Source of the DNA: a virus
Virus record (IMG/VR): IMGVR_UViG_3300045988_005608
Coordinates: 1-5,921 of that record
Direction: 5' to 3' (one strand)
Length of the DNA stretch: 5,921 bases
Part shown: positions 2,631 through 5,719 of the stretch, one piece after another
Numbering within the stretch: the first letter of the stretch is position 1
How the letters are laid out: each line of letters opens with the position of its first letter
Translations under genes and position numbers: made by a program
Notes under the pieces: model-generated
Seen by the model: the letters and a program-made list of their open reading frames with translations, nothing else
Told to the model about the DNA's origin: nothing
The model's database searches: none

Positions 2631-3467
2631 ATGAGTGTATTATCAGGACTCTTAACAGGACTAAACGTAGCGGGAAACGTAGCGAATACGGTTGGAACAA
2701 TTGCCGGCGCGGCAAAAGACGTTGCTGGAATATTCGGCGGATGGGGTCAAACCGGTAACAGCCAAAGTAGCGGAGGCAGCACAAGCGAAGGCGGCGGCCA
2801 CTCAGAAAGCGGAAGTCACTCGGGCACGAACGTACAACAGGTAAACGACTGGCTAAAACAGGCATACACATACCAAGGGCAAGAAGCTGCCATGCAAGGT
2901 AAATACAACAGTCAAAGCATGTTAAAGCAGATGGGTTACAACACCTTACAAGCAATCATGCAAGGCGTATATAACCACATTGAAAACAGCGTAGCAATGA
3001 ACTACAACAGTGCAGAAGCACTAGCCAACCGCGAATGGCAAGAGCACATGAGCAATACAGCATATCAAAGAGCCGTTGAAGATATGAAAAAAGCTGGACT
3101 GAATCCAATTCTAGCCTTTGCAAACGGTGGAGCAAGCACGCCGGGCGGTAGCGCGGGAACAATCAGCGGTGCAAGTATGGGACTAGCAAGCAGCAGCGCA
3201 CTAGGAGTAAGCCGAAGCGGTGGATTTGTACCGAACGCATACGAAAGCAATAGCTGGAGTAAAAGCGACTGGTACAACGCAGCACAAAGTTGGCAGCAGA
3301 TGCTCAGTAGTACGCAAATGACGCCTTACGGATTAGCGAAGGCTTTAACAAACGTTGGAAACGATACCGGAAAAGCAATAGAAAAAGCAACAAAATCGCA
3401 AAGCAAAACGCACAAGAGCAAAAGCGGAGCAGAACATGGCGGCGGCGGAGGTGAAATCAAAAAATGA
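2631..3467 (+). CDS. VP2: Minor capsid / DNA pilot protein VP2, 278 aa.
   Basis: The motif REWQEHMSNTAYQRAVEDMKKAGLNPILAF is the conserved core I recognise from gokushovirus VP2 proteins. Other features: Gly-rich hydrophobic N-terminus, Gly/Ser low-complexity linker, and position between VP1 and VP4. An in-frame TAA at 2628..2630 fixes 2631 as the first possible start. Confidence 0.9.
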   Translation: MSVLSGLLTGLNVAGNVANTVGTIAGAAKDVAGIFGGWGQTGNSQSSGGSTSEGGGHSESGSHSGTNVQQVNDWLKQAYTYQGQEAAMQGKYNSQSMLKQMGYNTLQAIMQGVYNHIENSVAMNYNSAEALANREWQEHMSNTAYQRAVEDMKKAGLNPILAFANGGASTPGGSAGTISGASMGLASSSALGVSRSGGFVPNAYESNSWSKSDWYNAAQSWQQMLSSTQMTPYGLAKALTNVGNDTGKAIEKATKSQSKTHKSKSGAEHGGGGGEIKK

Positions 3468-4483
3468 GTTGTTACAAGCCATTAATAAGGCTGTACAACC
3501 CGAACGATAAAAGCATCAGCGGGAGGGTATATTCACTCTCCCGCTTTTCTCAGTTAGCGGGAAAGCAGCTCAAATATGAAGACCTGATGTACAGAAAAGA
3601 TGTCATGTTGATACCATGCGGACAGTGCATCGGGTGCAGAATCAGACAAAGAGAGGACTGGACAACACGAATAGAATTAGAAGCACGAGACTATCCAAGA
3701 GAAGAAATTTGGTTTATCACATTAACTTATGACGATAATCATGTACCGGGCATGATAGTAAACACAGGCGAAATCATGCGAAAAGTACAATACGTCTGGA
3801 AACCGGGAGAGAAGCGCCCAGAAAGCGTCCAAACTTTGCTATATACTGACATTCAAAAGTTCTTAAAACGCCTCAGAAAGGCTTATAGGGGCAAATTACG
3901 CTATTTCGTAGCGGGAGAATACGGAGAACAGACGGCAAGACCACACTTCCATATGATTCTATATGGATGGAGACCAACAGACCTAGAGCACCTATACAAG
4001 ATACAGCACAACGGATATTTCACAAGTAAATGGTTAGCAAACCTGTGGGGCATGGGTCAAATACAGATAGCGCAAGCAGTACCTGAAACATATAGATATG
4101 TTGCGGGATACGTTACAAAAAAAATGTACGAAATTGACGGTCAAAAAGCAAACGCATACTACGAACTAGGGCAGCAAAAACCTTTTGCATGTATGAGCCT
4201 TAAACCGGGCTTAGGAGACCACTATTACCAAGAACACAAAGAAGAAATCTGGAGACAAGGCTACATCCAATGCACAAACGGCAAACACGCACAAATTCCA
4301 CGCTATTATGAAAAAATGATGGAAACTGAAAACCCACAAAGATTGTGGAGAATTAAACAGAACAGACAAGCAGCAGCCATAGCGGAGAACCGACTTAAGT
4401 ATGAAAATGCAGACTTTGCAGAGCAATGTAAGACAAAAGAAAGGGTGATAAAGAAGCAAATGAAGAAGAGAGGGACACTTTAA
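3464..4483 (+). CDS. VP4: Rolling-circle replication initiation protein VP4 (phiX174 A-like HUH endonuclease), 339 aa.
   Basis: ATGA start/stop overlap with VP2. GGAGGTG (3447..3453) lies upstream. Motif I FITLTY (3713..3730), HUH motif HFH (3944..3952) and the paired-tyrosine motif YRYVAGYVTKK (4091..4123) are present, plus a CGQCIGCR Cys cluster. Confidence 0.95.
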   Translation: MSCYKPLIRLYNPNDKSISGRVYSLSRFSQLAGKQLKYEDLMYRKDVMLIPCGQCIGCRIRQREDWTTRIELEARDYPREEIWFITLTYDDNHVPGMIVNTGEIMRKVQYVWKPGEKRPESVQTLLYTDIQKFLKRLRKAYRGKLRYFVAGEYGEQTARPHFHMILYGWRPTDLEHLYKIQHNGYFTSKWLANLWGMGQIQIAQAVPETYRYVAGYVTKKMYEIDGQKANAYYELGQQKPFACMSLKPGLGDHYYQEHKEEIWRQGYIQCTNGKHAQIPRYYEKMMETENPQRLWRIKQNRQAAAIAENRLKYENADFAEQCKTKERVIKKQMKKRGTL

Positions 4484-4501
4484 CAGTGTCATGGTGTCAC
4501 C

Positions 4502-4535
4502 TAGCCCAGTACCTATCAAGTAAGGTACTGGGCTA
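4502..4535 (+). other. Perfect 13-bp stem-loop (TAGCCCAGTACCT / AGGTACTGGGCTA, 8-nt loop ATCAAGTA) 19 nt after the VP4 stop. Could be a terminator or an ssDNA origin/priming structure.
   Basis: All 13 pairs from 4502:4535 to 4514:4523 are Watson-Crick. It is followed by TTGTCGTTT. A smaller 6-bp hairpin GACACT/AGTGTC (4474..4490) encloses the VP4 stop codon. Confidence 0.6.
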
Positions 4536-4594
4536 TTGTCGTTTAAAGGCTCCATGTATCAGCCTATTCAGTCTATCAAATAGCTATACTTTAT

Positions 4595-4639
4595 CGCGCG
4601 TGCGCACGCGCGCGAAGCGCGCACGCGCGCACGCGCGCA
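4595..4639. repeat. G/C-only alternating purine-pyrimidine block: ACGCGCGC x3 plus an 18-nt perfect palindrome.
   Basis: CGCGCGTGCGCACGCGCG (4595..4612) equals its own reverse complement. ACGCGCGC occurs at 4606, 4623 and 4631. Strict Pu/Py alternation holds for 4595..4614 and 4617..4639. GCGCGTGCGC (4596..4605) is complementary to both 4619..4628 and 4627..4636. Confidence 0.9.
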
Positions 4640-4653
4640 GCTCTTCAGCGCTA

Positions 4654-4683
4654 TTGTTCGCAAGCTCACAAGCGCTGTATAAT
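4654..4683 (+). promoter_or_regulatory. Weak candidate sigma70-type promoter (TTGTTC, 18-nt spacer, TATAAT).
   Basis: Perfect -10 TATAAT at 4678..4683. The -35 is poor, matching only TTG at 4654..4656. No credible ORF follows within 390 nt. Confidence 0.3.
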
Positions 4684-4777
4684 ATATAACTTGTTGTAGG
4701 AGTAGTAGTAGAGGCTGTGGAAAAGTTGATAAGTGCTAAAATTTAACGTTAAGACGTAAATAAAAAGCAAAAAACAA

Positions 4778-4816
4778 TGTTGAAAGTTTTGTTGAAAACT
4801 TGTTGAATTGTTGAAA
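4778..4816 (+). repeat. Iteron cluster A: four direct copies of TGTTGAA(A/T).
   Basis: Copies start at 4778, 4790, 4801 (TGTTGAAT) and 4809, giving spacings of 12, 11 and 8 nt. Confidence 0.9.
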
Positions 4817-4817
4817 G

Positions 4818-4834
4818 TTCGTCAAAATGACGAA
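4818..4834. repeat. Short inverted repeat/hairpin TTCGTCA-AAA-TGACGAA between the two iteron clusters.
   Basis: 4818..4824 is the reverse complement of 4828..4834, with a 3-nt loop. Confidence 0.7.
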
Positions 4835-4852
4835 AACCTTTGTGCAACTTTA

Positions 4853-4889
4853 TGTTGAAAACCTGTTGAAAGTGTTGAAAGTGTTGAAA
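4853..4889 (+). repeat. Iteron cluster B: four direct copies of TGTTGAAA.
   Basis: Copies start at 4853, 4864, 4873 and 4882, giving spacings of 11, 9 and 9 nt. Orientation is the same as cluster A. Confidence 0.9.
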
Positions 4890-4993
4890 ACGCGCACAGC
4901 GCTAACAAGGAATGGATTCAGCCGAATTCCGCTGCGCTCCATACGGCAAGGCGCTAAAGCGCCGTTCAAAACAAAGGAGCAAAACCGAGTTGC

Positions 4994-5003
4994 TGATATA
5001 TCA
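4994..5003. promoter_or_regulatory. 10-nt perfect AT-rich palindrome TGATATATCA about 20 nt upstream of the P1 -35 box. Possible operator.
   Basis: The sequence is self-complementary. It is flanked by GTTG (4989..4992), whose complement CAAC (5002..5005) overlaps the last 2 nt of the palindrome. Confidence 0.3.
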
Positions 5004-5023
5004 ACTAAAATTTCAAAAAAGGC

Positions 5024-5052
5024 TTGACTTTTTTTCGAGAATATGATAGAAT
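5024..5052 (+). promoter_or_regulatory. Promoter P1: TTGACT, 17-nt spacer, TAGAAT with an extended -10 TG and an A-rich upstream tract.
   Basis: -35 at 5024..5029, TG at 5044..5045, -10 at 5047..5052. The upstream AAAATTTCAAAAAA resembles an UP element. It sits about 28 nt before the ATG at 5080. Confidence 0.75.
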
Positions 5053-5079
5053 ATAATCACAGAAAGGAAGGTGCTCAAA

Positions 5080-5262
5080 ATGATGCACAAATACGAGTTA
5101 AGAAGCTGGAACAATGACGACACGATGACCACGGTATTAAAAATCAATGATACACCCAAAAACGCAAAAAAGCGGGCAAGAGAATACGCAAACGATCACA
5201 AGGGAATCTATTCCTTGTGCAGAGTCGAAGAAGTAAAAATATACTCCACTGAAAAAGAATAA
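5080..5262 (+). CDS. Hypothetical 60-aa hydrophilic protein of unknown function.
   Basis: ATG at 5080 lies 6 nt after the long SD AAGGAAGGTG (5064..5073). The track's GTG at 5071 lies inside that SD and is unlikely. The gene has its own promoter (P1) and its own terminator. No motif recognised and no TM segment. Confidence 0.7.
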   Translation: MMHKYELRSWNNDDTMTTVLKINDTPKNAKKRAREYANDHKGIYSLCRVEEVKIYSTEKE

Positions 5263-5267
5263 AAAGC

Positions 5268-5297
5268 AAACTCCCGGTTGACACCCGGGAGTTTTTA
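5268..5297 (+). terminator. Rho-independent terminator: 10-bp stem AAACTCCCGG/CCGGGAGTTT, 7-nt loop, T-run.
   Basis: Pairs 5268:5294 through 5277:5285, loop 5278..5284, Ts at 5292..5296. It starts 6 nt after the ORF stop at 5260..5262. Confidence 0.85.
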
Positions 5298-5306
5298 TTA
5301 TATAAT
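5278..5306 (+). promoter_or_regulatory. Promoter P2: perfect consensus TTGACA, 17-nt spacer, TATAAT.
   Basis: TTGACA at 5278..5283, spacer 5284..5300 (17 nt), TATAAT at 5301..5306. It lies about 20 nt upstream of the peptidase ATG (5327), which has the SD AAGGGGGG (5313..5320). Confidence 0.8.
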
Positions 5307-5326
5307 ACAGACAAGGGGGGATAAAC

Positions 5327-5719
5327 ATGATTAAAAGCTATATCATGGACACAGATGGAAACGTAAATCTGGCAAAACACTTCAAAGTAAAAGAATTTGC
5401 TTGCAAAGACGGCAGCCAAGTAGTATTCATAGACGACTACCTATACACCATTCTGGATATCTTACGAAAAAAGCTAGGAAAGCCGGTGATCATCAACAGC
5501 GGATACAGGACACCAGAGTGGAACAAAAAATGCGGTGGAGCAAAATACAGCTATCACATGCGCGGTATGGCAGCAGACATCCGAGTCAATGGCATGAGTG
5601 CAAAAGAGCTTGCCAACAAACTGAATGAAATCGTCCCGGATGAATGCGGCATTATCGTATACAACACCTGGGTGCACTTTGATGTGCGAAGCGGGAAAAA
5701 ATACAGAAAGGGGGTATAA
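5327..5719 (+). CDS. Zinc D,D- or L,D-peptidase of the M15 family (Peptidase_M15A / M15_3-like). Putative endolysin, 130 aa.
   Basis: FKVKEFACKDG...PVIINSGYRTPEWNKKCGGAKYSYHMRGMAADI...WVHFDV matches the SGYR..N/..S.H..G.A.D/..H.D zinc-ligand architecture of M15A cell-wall peptidases. No N-terminal hydrophobic signal is present. Confidence 0.9.
   Translation: MIKSYIMDTDGNVNLAKHFKVKEFACKDGSQVVFIDDYLYTILDILRKKLGKPVIINSGYRTPEWNKKCGGAKYSYHMRGMAADIRVNGMSAKELANKLNEIVPDECGIIVYNTWVHFDVRSGKKYRKGV

Follow-up and report, generated by a model that had tools for sequence, protein, structure and literature searches.

Members of the Microviridae replicate by textbook rolling circle, driven by the phage Rep protein. 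The theta origins of extrachromosomal replicons such as P1 oriR, pSC101, F and RK2 use their own initiator and their own long iterons, and DnaA is accessory there. In bacterial chromosomes, the basal unwinding system of oriC contains a DnaA box with at most 2 mismatches to TTATCCACA or to a species-specific motif, often as part of a tandem pair, and a box-trio spacer of 0-16 nucleotides (nt) that includes a GC part averaging ~4 bp (PMC8287927). A second tandem box is optional and may have up to 4 mismatches (PMC8287927). The DnaA-trios comprise at least three NAN units with the consensus 3'-GAT-5' (PMC8287927; PMC7561715), and an AT-rich element lies beyond them. The system was defined at incC of B. 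subtilis and is predicted at oriC2, the dnaA-dnaN region of Clostridia; one example is oriC2 of C. difficile, 5'-CACCTACTACTATTACTACTATGA-3' (PMC7561715). Looping is the mode of action of the distal incC boxes, which lie 132-462 bp from the trios; it works in either orientation and shows helical phasing (PMC6669920). Here we describe a cassette with the architecture of such a module in a single-stranded DNA (ssDNA) phage. It lies in IMG/VR virus record IMGVR_UViG_3300045988_005608, a stretch of 5,921 nt (hereafter the window) that gene calls and a profile search identified as a complete-looking gokushovirus genome. The cassette, which includes eight copies of TGTTGAA described in an earlier note on this DNA, is composed of the following parts:

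4680-4891, plus strand: whole oriC-like cassette, 211 bp, delimited by the BLAST breakpoints in every inverted or relocated relative.
4678-4689, no strand assigned: AT-only run TATAATATATAA, 12 nt, read directly; candidate DNA-unwinding element. All cassettes, and likewise the host oriCs described below, are AT-rich here.
4691-4711, plus strand: DnaA-trio-like run TTG TTG TAG GAG TAG TAG TAG, the most invariant part, which fits the published trio definition.
4712-4715, no strand assigned: GC-rich spacer AGGC from the trios to the first box; in relatives also GC-rich and ~3-5 nt long (GGCA, GGTT, GGGC, GGGG).
4716-4724, plus strand: DnaA box TGTGGAAAA (reverse complement TTTTCCACA), with 0 mismatches to TTWTNCACA and 1 to TTATCCACA.
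4724-4732, plus strand: second, weaker tandem box AGTTGATAA (aGTTGATAA), with 2 mismatches to TGTGGATAA, overlapping or abutting the first box.
4733-4777: A-rich spacer, ~45 nt.
4778-4817, plus strand: box cluster A, four TGTTGAA(A) / TGTTGAAA boxes at 4778, 4790, 4801 and 4809.
4818-4852: spacer of ~35 nt holding the inverted repeat TTCGTCA-AAA-TGACGAA (4818-4834).
4853-4890, plus strand: box cluster B, four TGTTGAA(A) / TGTTGAAA boxes at 4853, 4864, 4873 and 4882.

Compared with the published rules, the first box is a minus-strand site (4724-4716) separated from the trios by 4 nt, and the tandem partner is within the mismatch range of the optional second box. Read 3' to 5' from 4711 to 4691, the trio run is GAT GAT GAT GAG GAT followed by GTT GTT, which places the trios on the correct strand; trios and box relate in strand just as they do in the four host oriCs described below. 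The AT-rich element is represented by the 12-nt run of A and T only, which is shorter than in model origins. On the reverse strand the whole arrangement is TTATCAAC-TTTTCCACA-GCCT-CTA CTA CTA CTC CTA-CAACAAG-TTATATATTATA, and it conforms to each of the published sequence rules. A strict regular expression combining box, spacer and trios matched the window once, at the cassette, and gave any match in only 8 of 500 shuffled sequences. The cassette resembles the basal unwinding system of a bacterial oriC in its tandem boxes, its ~4-nt GC spacer, its run of at least five 3'-GAT-5' trios and its AT-rich run, and also in having additional box clusters 60-170 bp away. Unlike an oriC, it is not beside dnaA and dnaN on a bacterial chromosome: it sits in the 5.9-kb genome of a gokushovirus, is just 211 bp long with a 12-nt AT run, is mobile (two orientations, two positions), carries a phage-specific invariant AACTTGTTG and lacks an oriC1-like partner cluster. 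With the plasmid and phage theta origins it shares boxes beside an AT-rich region that would recruit host DnaA to an extrachromosomal replicon. It differs from them in having a full trio-based unwinding module, and neither a phage theta initiator nor a second repeat type is evident.

The earlier note had reported eight same-strand TGTTGAA(A/T) copies in two clusters and, by eye, none in the coding sequence. An exact count on both strands agreed on each point, with eight copies of TGTTGAA on the plus strand and 0 elsewhere in the window. In dinucleotide-preserving shuffles (n = 200), the heptamer occurred 1.30 times on average and at most 4 times, and 0 of 200 shuffles reached 8. The start-to-start spacings of the repeats are 12, 11 and 8 nt, then a gap of 44, then 11, 9 and 9 nt. 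Two degenerate copies had also been proposed upstream. GTTGATA at 4725 is indeed a further box, adjoined by the box TGTGGAAAA at 4716 that had been overlooked, whereas TGTTGTA at 4692 is part of the trinucleotide run and is no box. The reverse complement of the repeat, TTTTCAACA, has 1 mismatch to the relaxed DnaA-box consensus TTWTNCACA.

Conservation of the repeats in relatives, which the earlier note had named as a check, was clear. The non-coding region of the window is kept in 46-65 microvirus records of GenBank, which derive from the faeces of humans, pigs, monkeys, mink and dogs, and the TGTTGAA repeats are kept in 46 GenBank phage records. Both region and repeats were present in ~78 of 80 IMG/VR relatives found via VP4, the Rep protein. 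Overall, the cassette was found in at least 155 distinct gokushovirus genomes, one cassette each, whose VP4 proteins are 30-100% identical to that of the window (<60% in 59 genomes). One apparent relative without the cassette (L037) was rejected as a chimeric assembly of 8.8 kb, in which a microvirus is fused to tailed-phage portal and terminase genes. A 10.7-kb IMG/VR contig (L066) has one forward and one reversed cassette; it probably joins two genomes, as a chimera or a heterodimer.

In an alignment of 93 unique cassettes, variation was lowest not in the eight repeats but in the block TAACTTGTTGTAGGAGTAGTAGTAG that lies upstream of them. Among the boxes of the 155 cassettes, TGTTGAA was counted 1055 times, TGTGGAA 139 times, TGTTGAT 24 times and TGTGGAT 20 times. 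The canonical TGTGGATAA, as well as TGTGGAAAA and TGTTGATAA, stand in for TGTTGAAAA at homologous positions in relatives; in cluster A the substitutes are TGTGGATAA or TGTGGAAAA, and at the second tandem-box position TGTTGAAA, GTTGAAAA or TGTTGAT is found. The inverted repeat between the clusters is present in the window as the earlier note had described it. It is moderately to weakly conserved in relatives and lost in divergent ones (absent from L014, L017, L018 and L019), which retain the AT run, the trinucleotide run, the GC spacer and the tandem boxes. This palindrome is probably incidental to the function of the cassette. A single copy of its arm, TTCGTCA, follows a box cluster in the oriC of one host contig (L174, ~1770-1760).

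The same architecture was met in bacteria. A search for three TGTTGAA copies close together covered 185,579 species-representative genomes. Many matches were simple tandem repeats, and irregular arrays like that of the phage occurred in four independent contigs, all from metagenome-assembled genomes: L174 and L125 (Oscillospiraceae), L142 (Ruminococcus) and L147 (rumen Clostridiales). Each of the four arrays takes up the gap that separates dnaA from dnaN; the flanking genes were identified in L174 by profile (DnaA TIGR00362, 498 bits; DnaN TIGR00663, 309 bits) and in L125, L142 and L147 by tblastn. In Firmicutes this gap is the unwinding half of oriC. The four host oriCs share the order AT-rich DNA, (TAG)4-5, a G-rich spacer of 2-4 nt (GGGG, GGTA or GG) and tandem boxes, for example TGTTGAAAC TGTTGAAAA, TGTTGAAAC TGTGGAAAA or TGTTGAAAA TGTTGAAAA. 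Each mixes TGTTGAA with TGTGGAA boxes, the strand bias of the boxes is 20:4, 14:5, 26:4 and 9:1, and their spacings are mostly 9-12 nt. Order, strand sense and motif dialect of the cassette are those of these four Oscillospirales oriCs. Furthermore, the phage 21-mer ATGTTGAAAACCTGTTGAAAG (4852-4872) recurs without a mismatch at two sites in the L174 oriC, and one site in the L125 oriC matches its first 20 bases (4852-4871) exactly.

The genome scan gave no locus that encodes VP1 or VP4, as a prophage or integrated copy would, and no plasmid homologue was found in PLSDB. A scan with the canonical pattern TAGTAGTAG-N3-6-TGTGGATAA gave no additional microviruses. Matches of the core motif ACTTGTTGTAGNNGTAGTAG in larger viral contigs were attributed to chance, being found only within coding sequence for Thr/Ser repeats. 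Canonical oriC-like modules, with (TAG)3-5, a spacer, TGTGGATAA and several extra TGTGGATAA boxes, were seen in two non-microvirus IMG/VR contigs of 9.0 and 8.8 kb (L344, ~8280-8560; L341, 1-240), which are viral or misbinned. A dif-like reading of 4670-4700 was dropped after inspection by eye.

BLAST of the region against relatives showed that the cassette behaves as a discrete unit with fixed ends at 4680 and 4891. It lies forward after VP4 in 122 of the 155 genomes, reversed between VP2 and VP4 in 23 and reversed after VP4 in 10. In the window it is bracketed by the 8-bp inverted repeat AGCGCTGT (4671-4678) / ACAGCGCT (4896-4903), and in MG945447, where it is inverted, the junctions fall inside this repeat. 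In KT264784, KX513876 and KX513864 the cassette is inverted and has also moved into the gap between VP2 and VP4, and KX513876 retains after VP4 the sequence that in the window lies right of the cassette (4890-5101). In genomes with 37-48% VP4 and ~40-45% VP1 protein identity, the cassette still shows 70-78% nucleotide identity, and in the most divergent ones (VP4 37%, VP1 40%) it is the sole nucleotide match of a ~680-nt non-coding query (window 4441-5120). The boxes are unchanged over the full range of VP4 identity, and the cassette is conserved independently of both VP4 sequence and orientation. The profile search found no recombinase gene in the window. The reversed-after-VP4 alleles are scattered in the VP4 tree yet form one cassette lineage, with nearest neighbours 84-94% identical to each other versus ~80% to the forward cassette of the window. 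Because they form a lineage of their own, the pattern suggests one old inversion that was spread by recombination, in preference to an active inversion switch.

We consider it highly probable, from the sequence comparisons above, that the TGTTGAA repeats are DnaA boxes and that the cassette is an oriC-like module. The fuller statement, that opening of the DNA by DnaA at this place also initiates or aids phage replication, is favoured with distinctly less assurance; we infer DnaA binding, duplex opening and any replication outcome from the architecture. The ligand of the repeats is probably host DnaA rather than VP4 or a small phage protein, and the box dialect points to a member of the Oscillospirales (Clostridia) as the host. 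In such a system, host DnaA-ATP would occupy the ten same-sense boxes of the replicative form, which is double-stranded. Starting at the two boxes next to the trios, DnaA would oligomerise onto the TAG-trio strand and open the adjoining AT-rich DNA. This opening could serve phage replication, as its start or as an aid, via host helicase loading, either for amplification of the theta type or for carriage of the replicative form like a plasmid, or it could instead expose ssDNA to the phage Rep. A looping role like that of the distal boxes of incC is plausible for clusters A and B. If the boxes are host DnaA sites, it would be explained why the trios are most constrained, why canonical boxes interchange with the repeat and why the dialect is that of one bacterial order. 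The high invariance of the trio run is expected for unwinding and not for mere binding. Similarly, a host DnaA module on the double-stranded replicative form would account for the lack of co-variation with Rep and for the tolerance of inversion and relocation, a variability to be expected of an element that works on double-stranded DNA.

Several points weigh against this interpretation. The phage already encodes a rolling-circle Rep and has no obvious need of another way to initiate. Relative to TTATCCACA, TGTTGAAAA has 2 mismatches, and relative to TTWTNCACA it has 1; the AT-only run of 12 nt is short beside the 27-mer of B. subtilis. The invariant AACTTGTTG beside the trios does not occur in the host oriCs, and DnaA alone does not explain it. 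The host origins were found by the pattern-based scan itself, so the box dialect carries ascertainment bias. Beyond the motifs and the shared 21-mer, extended homology to a host oriC is absent, and for this reason capture and mimicry are not separable. Finally, oriC2 of C. difficile alone was not unwound in vitro without oriC1 (PMC7561715), and a single cluster may therefore be insufficient.

The earlier note had taken the repeats for an origin-like array of direct repeats that binds a protein. This idea holds up, including the host factor that it had offered as one option, and the other two options fit the data poorly. One of them was that the repeats are iterons of VP4 flanking a hairpin, in the style of geminiviruses and other CRESS-DNA viruses (ssDNA viruses whose circular genomes encode a Rep). 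An origin of the CRESS or pMV158 type would be in keeping with direct repeats that recur at roughly every helical turn and with their place in the main non-coding region, close to VP4, and HUH Reps of other families bind such repeats. Like the HUH Rep origins (the stem-loop of geminiviruses and circoviruses, nic and bind of pMV158), the cassette places short direct repeats 100-200 nt from a candidate nick motif in a Rep-encoding ssDNA replicon. Unlike them, its repeats match sites of the host initiator and do not track Rep, and its orientation to the candidate nick hairpin varies. The co-variation of repeats with VP4 that the earlier note had proposed to look for was not seen, as the boxes stay the same at VP4 identities of 30-100%, and the array flips and moves. 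The central hairpin is unconserved and has an AAA loop without a nick motif, and motif and grammar are identical to those of host oriCs. The other option was an operator array for a small open reading frame (ORF) nearby, and here the 23 genomes with the cassette between VP2 and VP4, far from the ORF, speak against a link. ORF 4827-5027 does not behave as a conserved protein either: its start context is present in 47 of 155 genomes, the cassette boundary at 4891 cuts it and it has no Pfam match. Pfam, Rfam and ORF analysis give no cognate phage DNA-binding protein, and we regard Rep iterons or small-protein operators as very improbable. Sites for Spo0A, through which the phage would sense host sporulation as phi29 does, have the least chance of all. 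A single base separates TGTTGAA from the 0A box TGTCGAA, the arms of the hairpin (TGACGAA) conform to TGNCGAA, the inferred host order includes spore-formers, and in B. subtilis oriC there is overlap between 0A and DnaA boxes. Where 0A boxes carry the conserved C, however, each of the eight repeats carries T, and no sites other than the two unconserved hairpin arms conform to TGNCGAA. At positions 8-9 the repeats (A, A/G) agree with the 9-mer DnaA box, and relatives swap in TGTGGAA or TGTGGAT, not TGTCGAA. As an observation apart, TTCGTCA/TGACGAA, present in the phage at 4818-4834 and as the single TTCGTCA in the L174 oriC, may be a site of a sporulation regulator; it is unconserved in divergent phages.

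A role for DnaA without DNA opening is also conceivable, either as a sink that titrates the protein in the manner of datA or inc, or as DnaA-dependent tuning of phage promoters. DnaA is known to act in transcription control as well, and additional clusters of boxes perturb initiation; ten same-sense boxes on a multicopy replicative form would suit a sink, and in the window the cassette lies between VP4 and a promoter at 5024-5052. Nevertheless, conservation peaks in the trio run, the GC spacer and the AT run, none of which is necessary for titration or repression, and the position of the cassette relative to promoters and genes is not fixed. Because neither titration nor transcriptional control needs trios or an AT run, these are weaker alternatives, and we judge them improbable. 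Somewhat better placed, but still unlikely, is a composite rolling-circle origin, in which the core TAACTTG^TTGTAG (4687-4699) would be the nick site of VP4, DnaA melting would replace the hairpin that otherwise presents the site, and the orientation of the cassette would pick the packaged strand. It draws on similarity to the phiX174 nick site, CAACTTG^ATA, which comes with an AT spacer and a key binding sequence in the 30-nt origin inside gene A (CAACTTG^ATATTAATAAC...). ACTTG-type motifs of the window are TAACTTGTTG in the cassette and TACTTGAT in a hairpin loop at 4502-4535; the part shared with phiX174 is only the ACTTG core (4689, 4798 and the minus-strand loop of 4502-4535), and none lies within VP4. 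Unlike the window, the phiX174 origin is inside the Rep gene and is without DnaA boxes or trios. The core TAACTTGTTGTAG, at the junction of AT run and trios, is invariant in the phages and absent from host oriCs, and shares the 10-mer ACTTGTTGTA with the hairpin loop of phiMH2K; two lineages without the hairpin have no other intergenic ACTTG[AT]T. The cassette core may be a second Rep recognition site. Against the composite origin, by our estimate a 10-mer match to an 18-nt loop would arise by chance in a 5.9-kb genome in ~10% of cases, and third-position skews are alike in forward and reversed genomes (a weak test, as phiMH2K shows that skew is not diagnostic). The 4502-4535 hairpin is, moreover, the better candidate of the classical type.

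This candidate has counterparts in described gokushoviruses. Chp2, phiMH2K and SpV4 have exactly one long perfect-stem hairpin each with ACTTG in the loop on the gene strand (TCTACTTGAT, GGACCCTACTTGTTGTAA and ATTACTTGTTATA, respectively), and those of Chp2 and phiMH2K lie between annotated genes. The hairpin of the window, just after VP4, has a 13-bp stem and the loop TACTTGAT on the minus strand, opposite to the genes. It keeps the same orientation in all 125 instances among the 155 genomes, whereas the cassette flips; its loop is conserved, with CAACTTGATA in one genome, and its stem changes are compensatory. Either this fixed hairpin is the VP4 origin, which would predict an antisense virion strand in the clade, or the cassette also bears a DnaA-exposed nick site. 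In the classical gokushoviruses phiMH2K and SpV4 neither a box cluster nor trios were found, and Chp2 has just two tandem TGTGCAAAA, perfect matches to TTWTNCACA, followed by phased A-tract repeats in its intergenic region (L355, 2812-2945). The 14-bp-stem hairpin of Chp2 with the loop TCTACTTGAT is ~50 nt away from this array, which places an iteron-like array beside a candidate nick hairpin.

The closest GenBank genome to the window is KT264791 from human faeces, with ~85% identity. The genes and the non-coding region around the cassette are as follows:

262-501: VP5.
374-886: VP3 scaffold.
889-2592: VP1 capsid.
2631-3467: VP2.
3464-4483: VP4 Rep.
4484-5070: non-coding region, 590 nt.
5327-5719: M15 peptidase.

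Other elements lie near the cassette. To its left, 4595-4637 is a block of >85% G+C with alternating CG/CA, a near-perfect palindrome with 20-nt arms that folds as ssDNA at -27.7 kcal/mol (z = -1.9). It adjoins the cassette in most relatives and stays put when the cassette flips; a cruciform, Z-DNA and a complementary-strand origin are possibilities. To the right are a hairpin at 4921-4947 (GCCGAAT...ATACGGC), in which three pairs show compensatory double changes and 0 pairs are broken in 20 sequences, and another at 4951-4962 (GCGC-TAAA-GCGC) with an invariant 4-bp stem. Both keep their place after VP4 in genomes that carry the cassette elsewhere. At 5268-5306, a short way upstream of the M15 peptidase gene, is a perfect consensus promoter, TTGACA-17-TATAAT, whose -35 hexamer lies in the loop of a bidirectional terminator-like hairpin with a 10-bp stem (5268-5294). 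An Rfam search at a permissive threshold found no RNA family in the region; the lone match was a weak one to caiA at 5260-5329, well below the gathering score.

DnaA boxes in plasmid and phage origins and the unwinding system in chromosomes are already known. In the open-access full-text literature we found no description of DnaA boxes, trios, an oriC-like module or iterons in Microviridae and no mention of the host initiator DnaA playing a part there, and a complete trio-based module as a mobile cassette in an ssDNA phage appears to be new. Our most far-reaching proposal is a tentative one, possible rather than probable: the cassette would be a portable miniature of a host origin, built or captured by a gut gokushovirus lineage. 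It would make the replicative form a DnaA-dependent minichromosome, with Rep-independent theta amplification or plasmid-like carriage in Oscillospiraceae, or it would be a DnaA-melted Rep nick site whose orientation sets the packaged polarity, and its dialect would predict the host. If DnaA does act at the cassette, the most abundant ssDNA phages of the mammalian gut would have a host-initiator-dependent step or persistence mode. A large clade with unassigned hosts would receive a concrete, testable host assignment (Oscillospirales), and the box dialect would serve as a sequence-only host predictor for uncultured microviruses. For the study of DnaA-trios in Clostridia, the cassette would provide a natural minimal unwinding module of 211 bp with hundreds of sequence variants.

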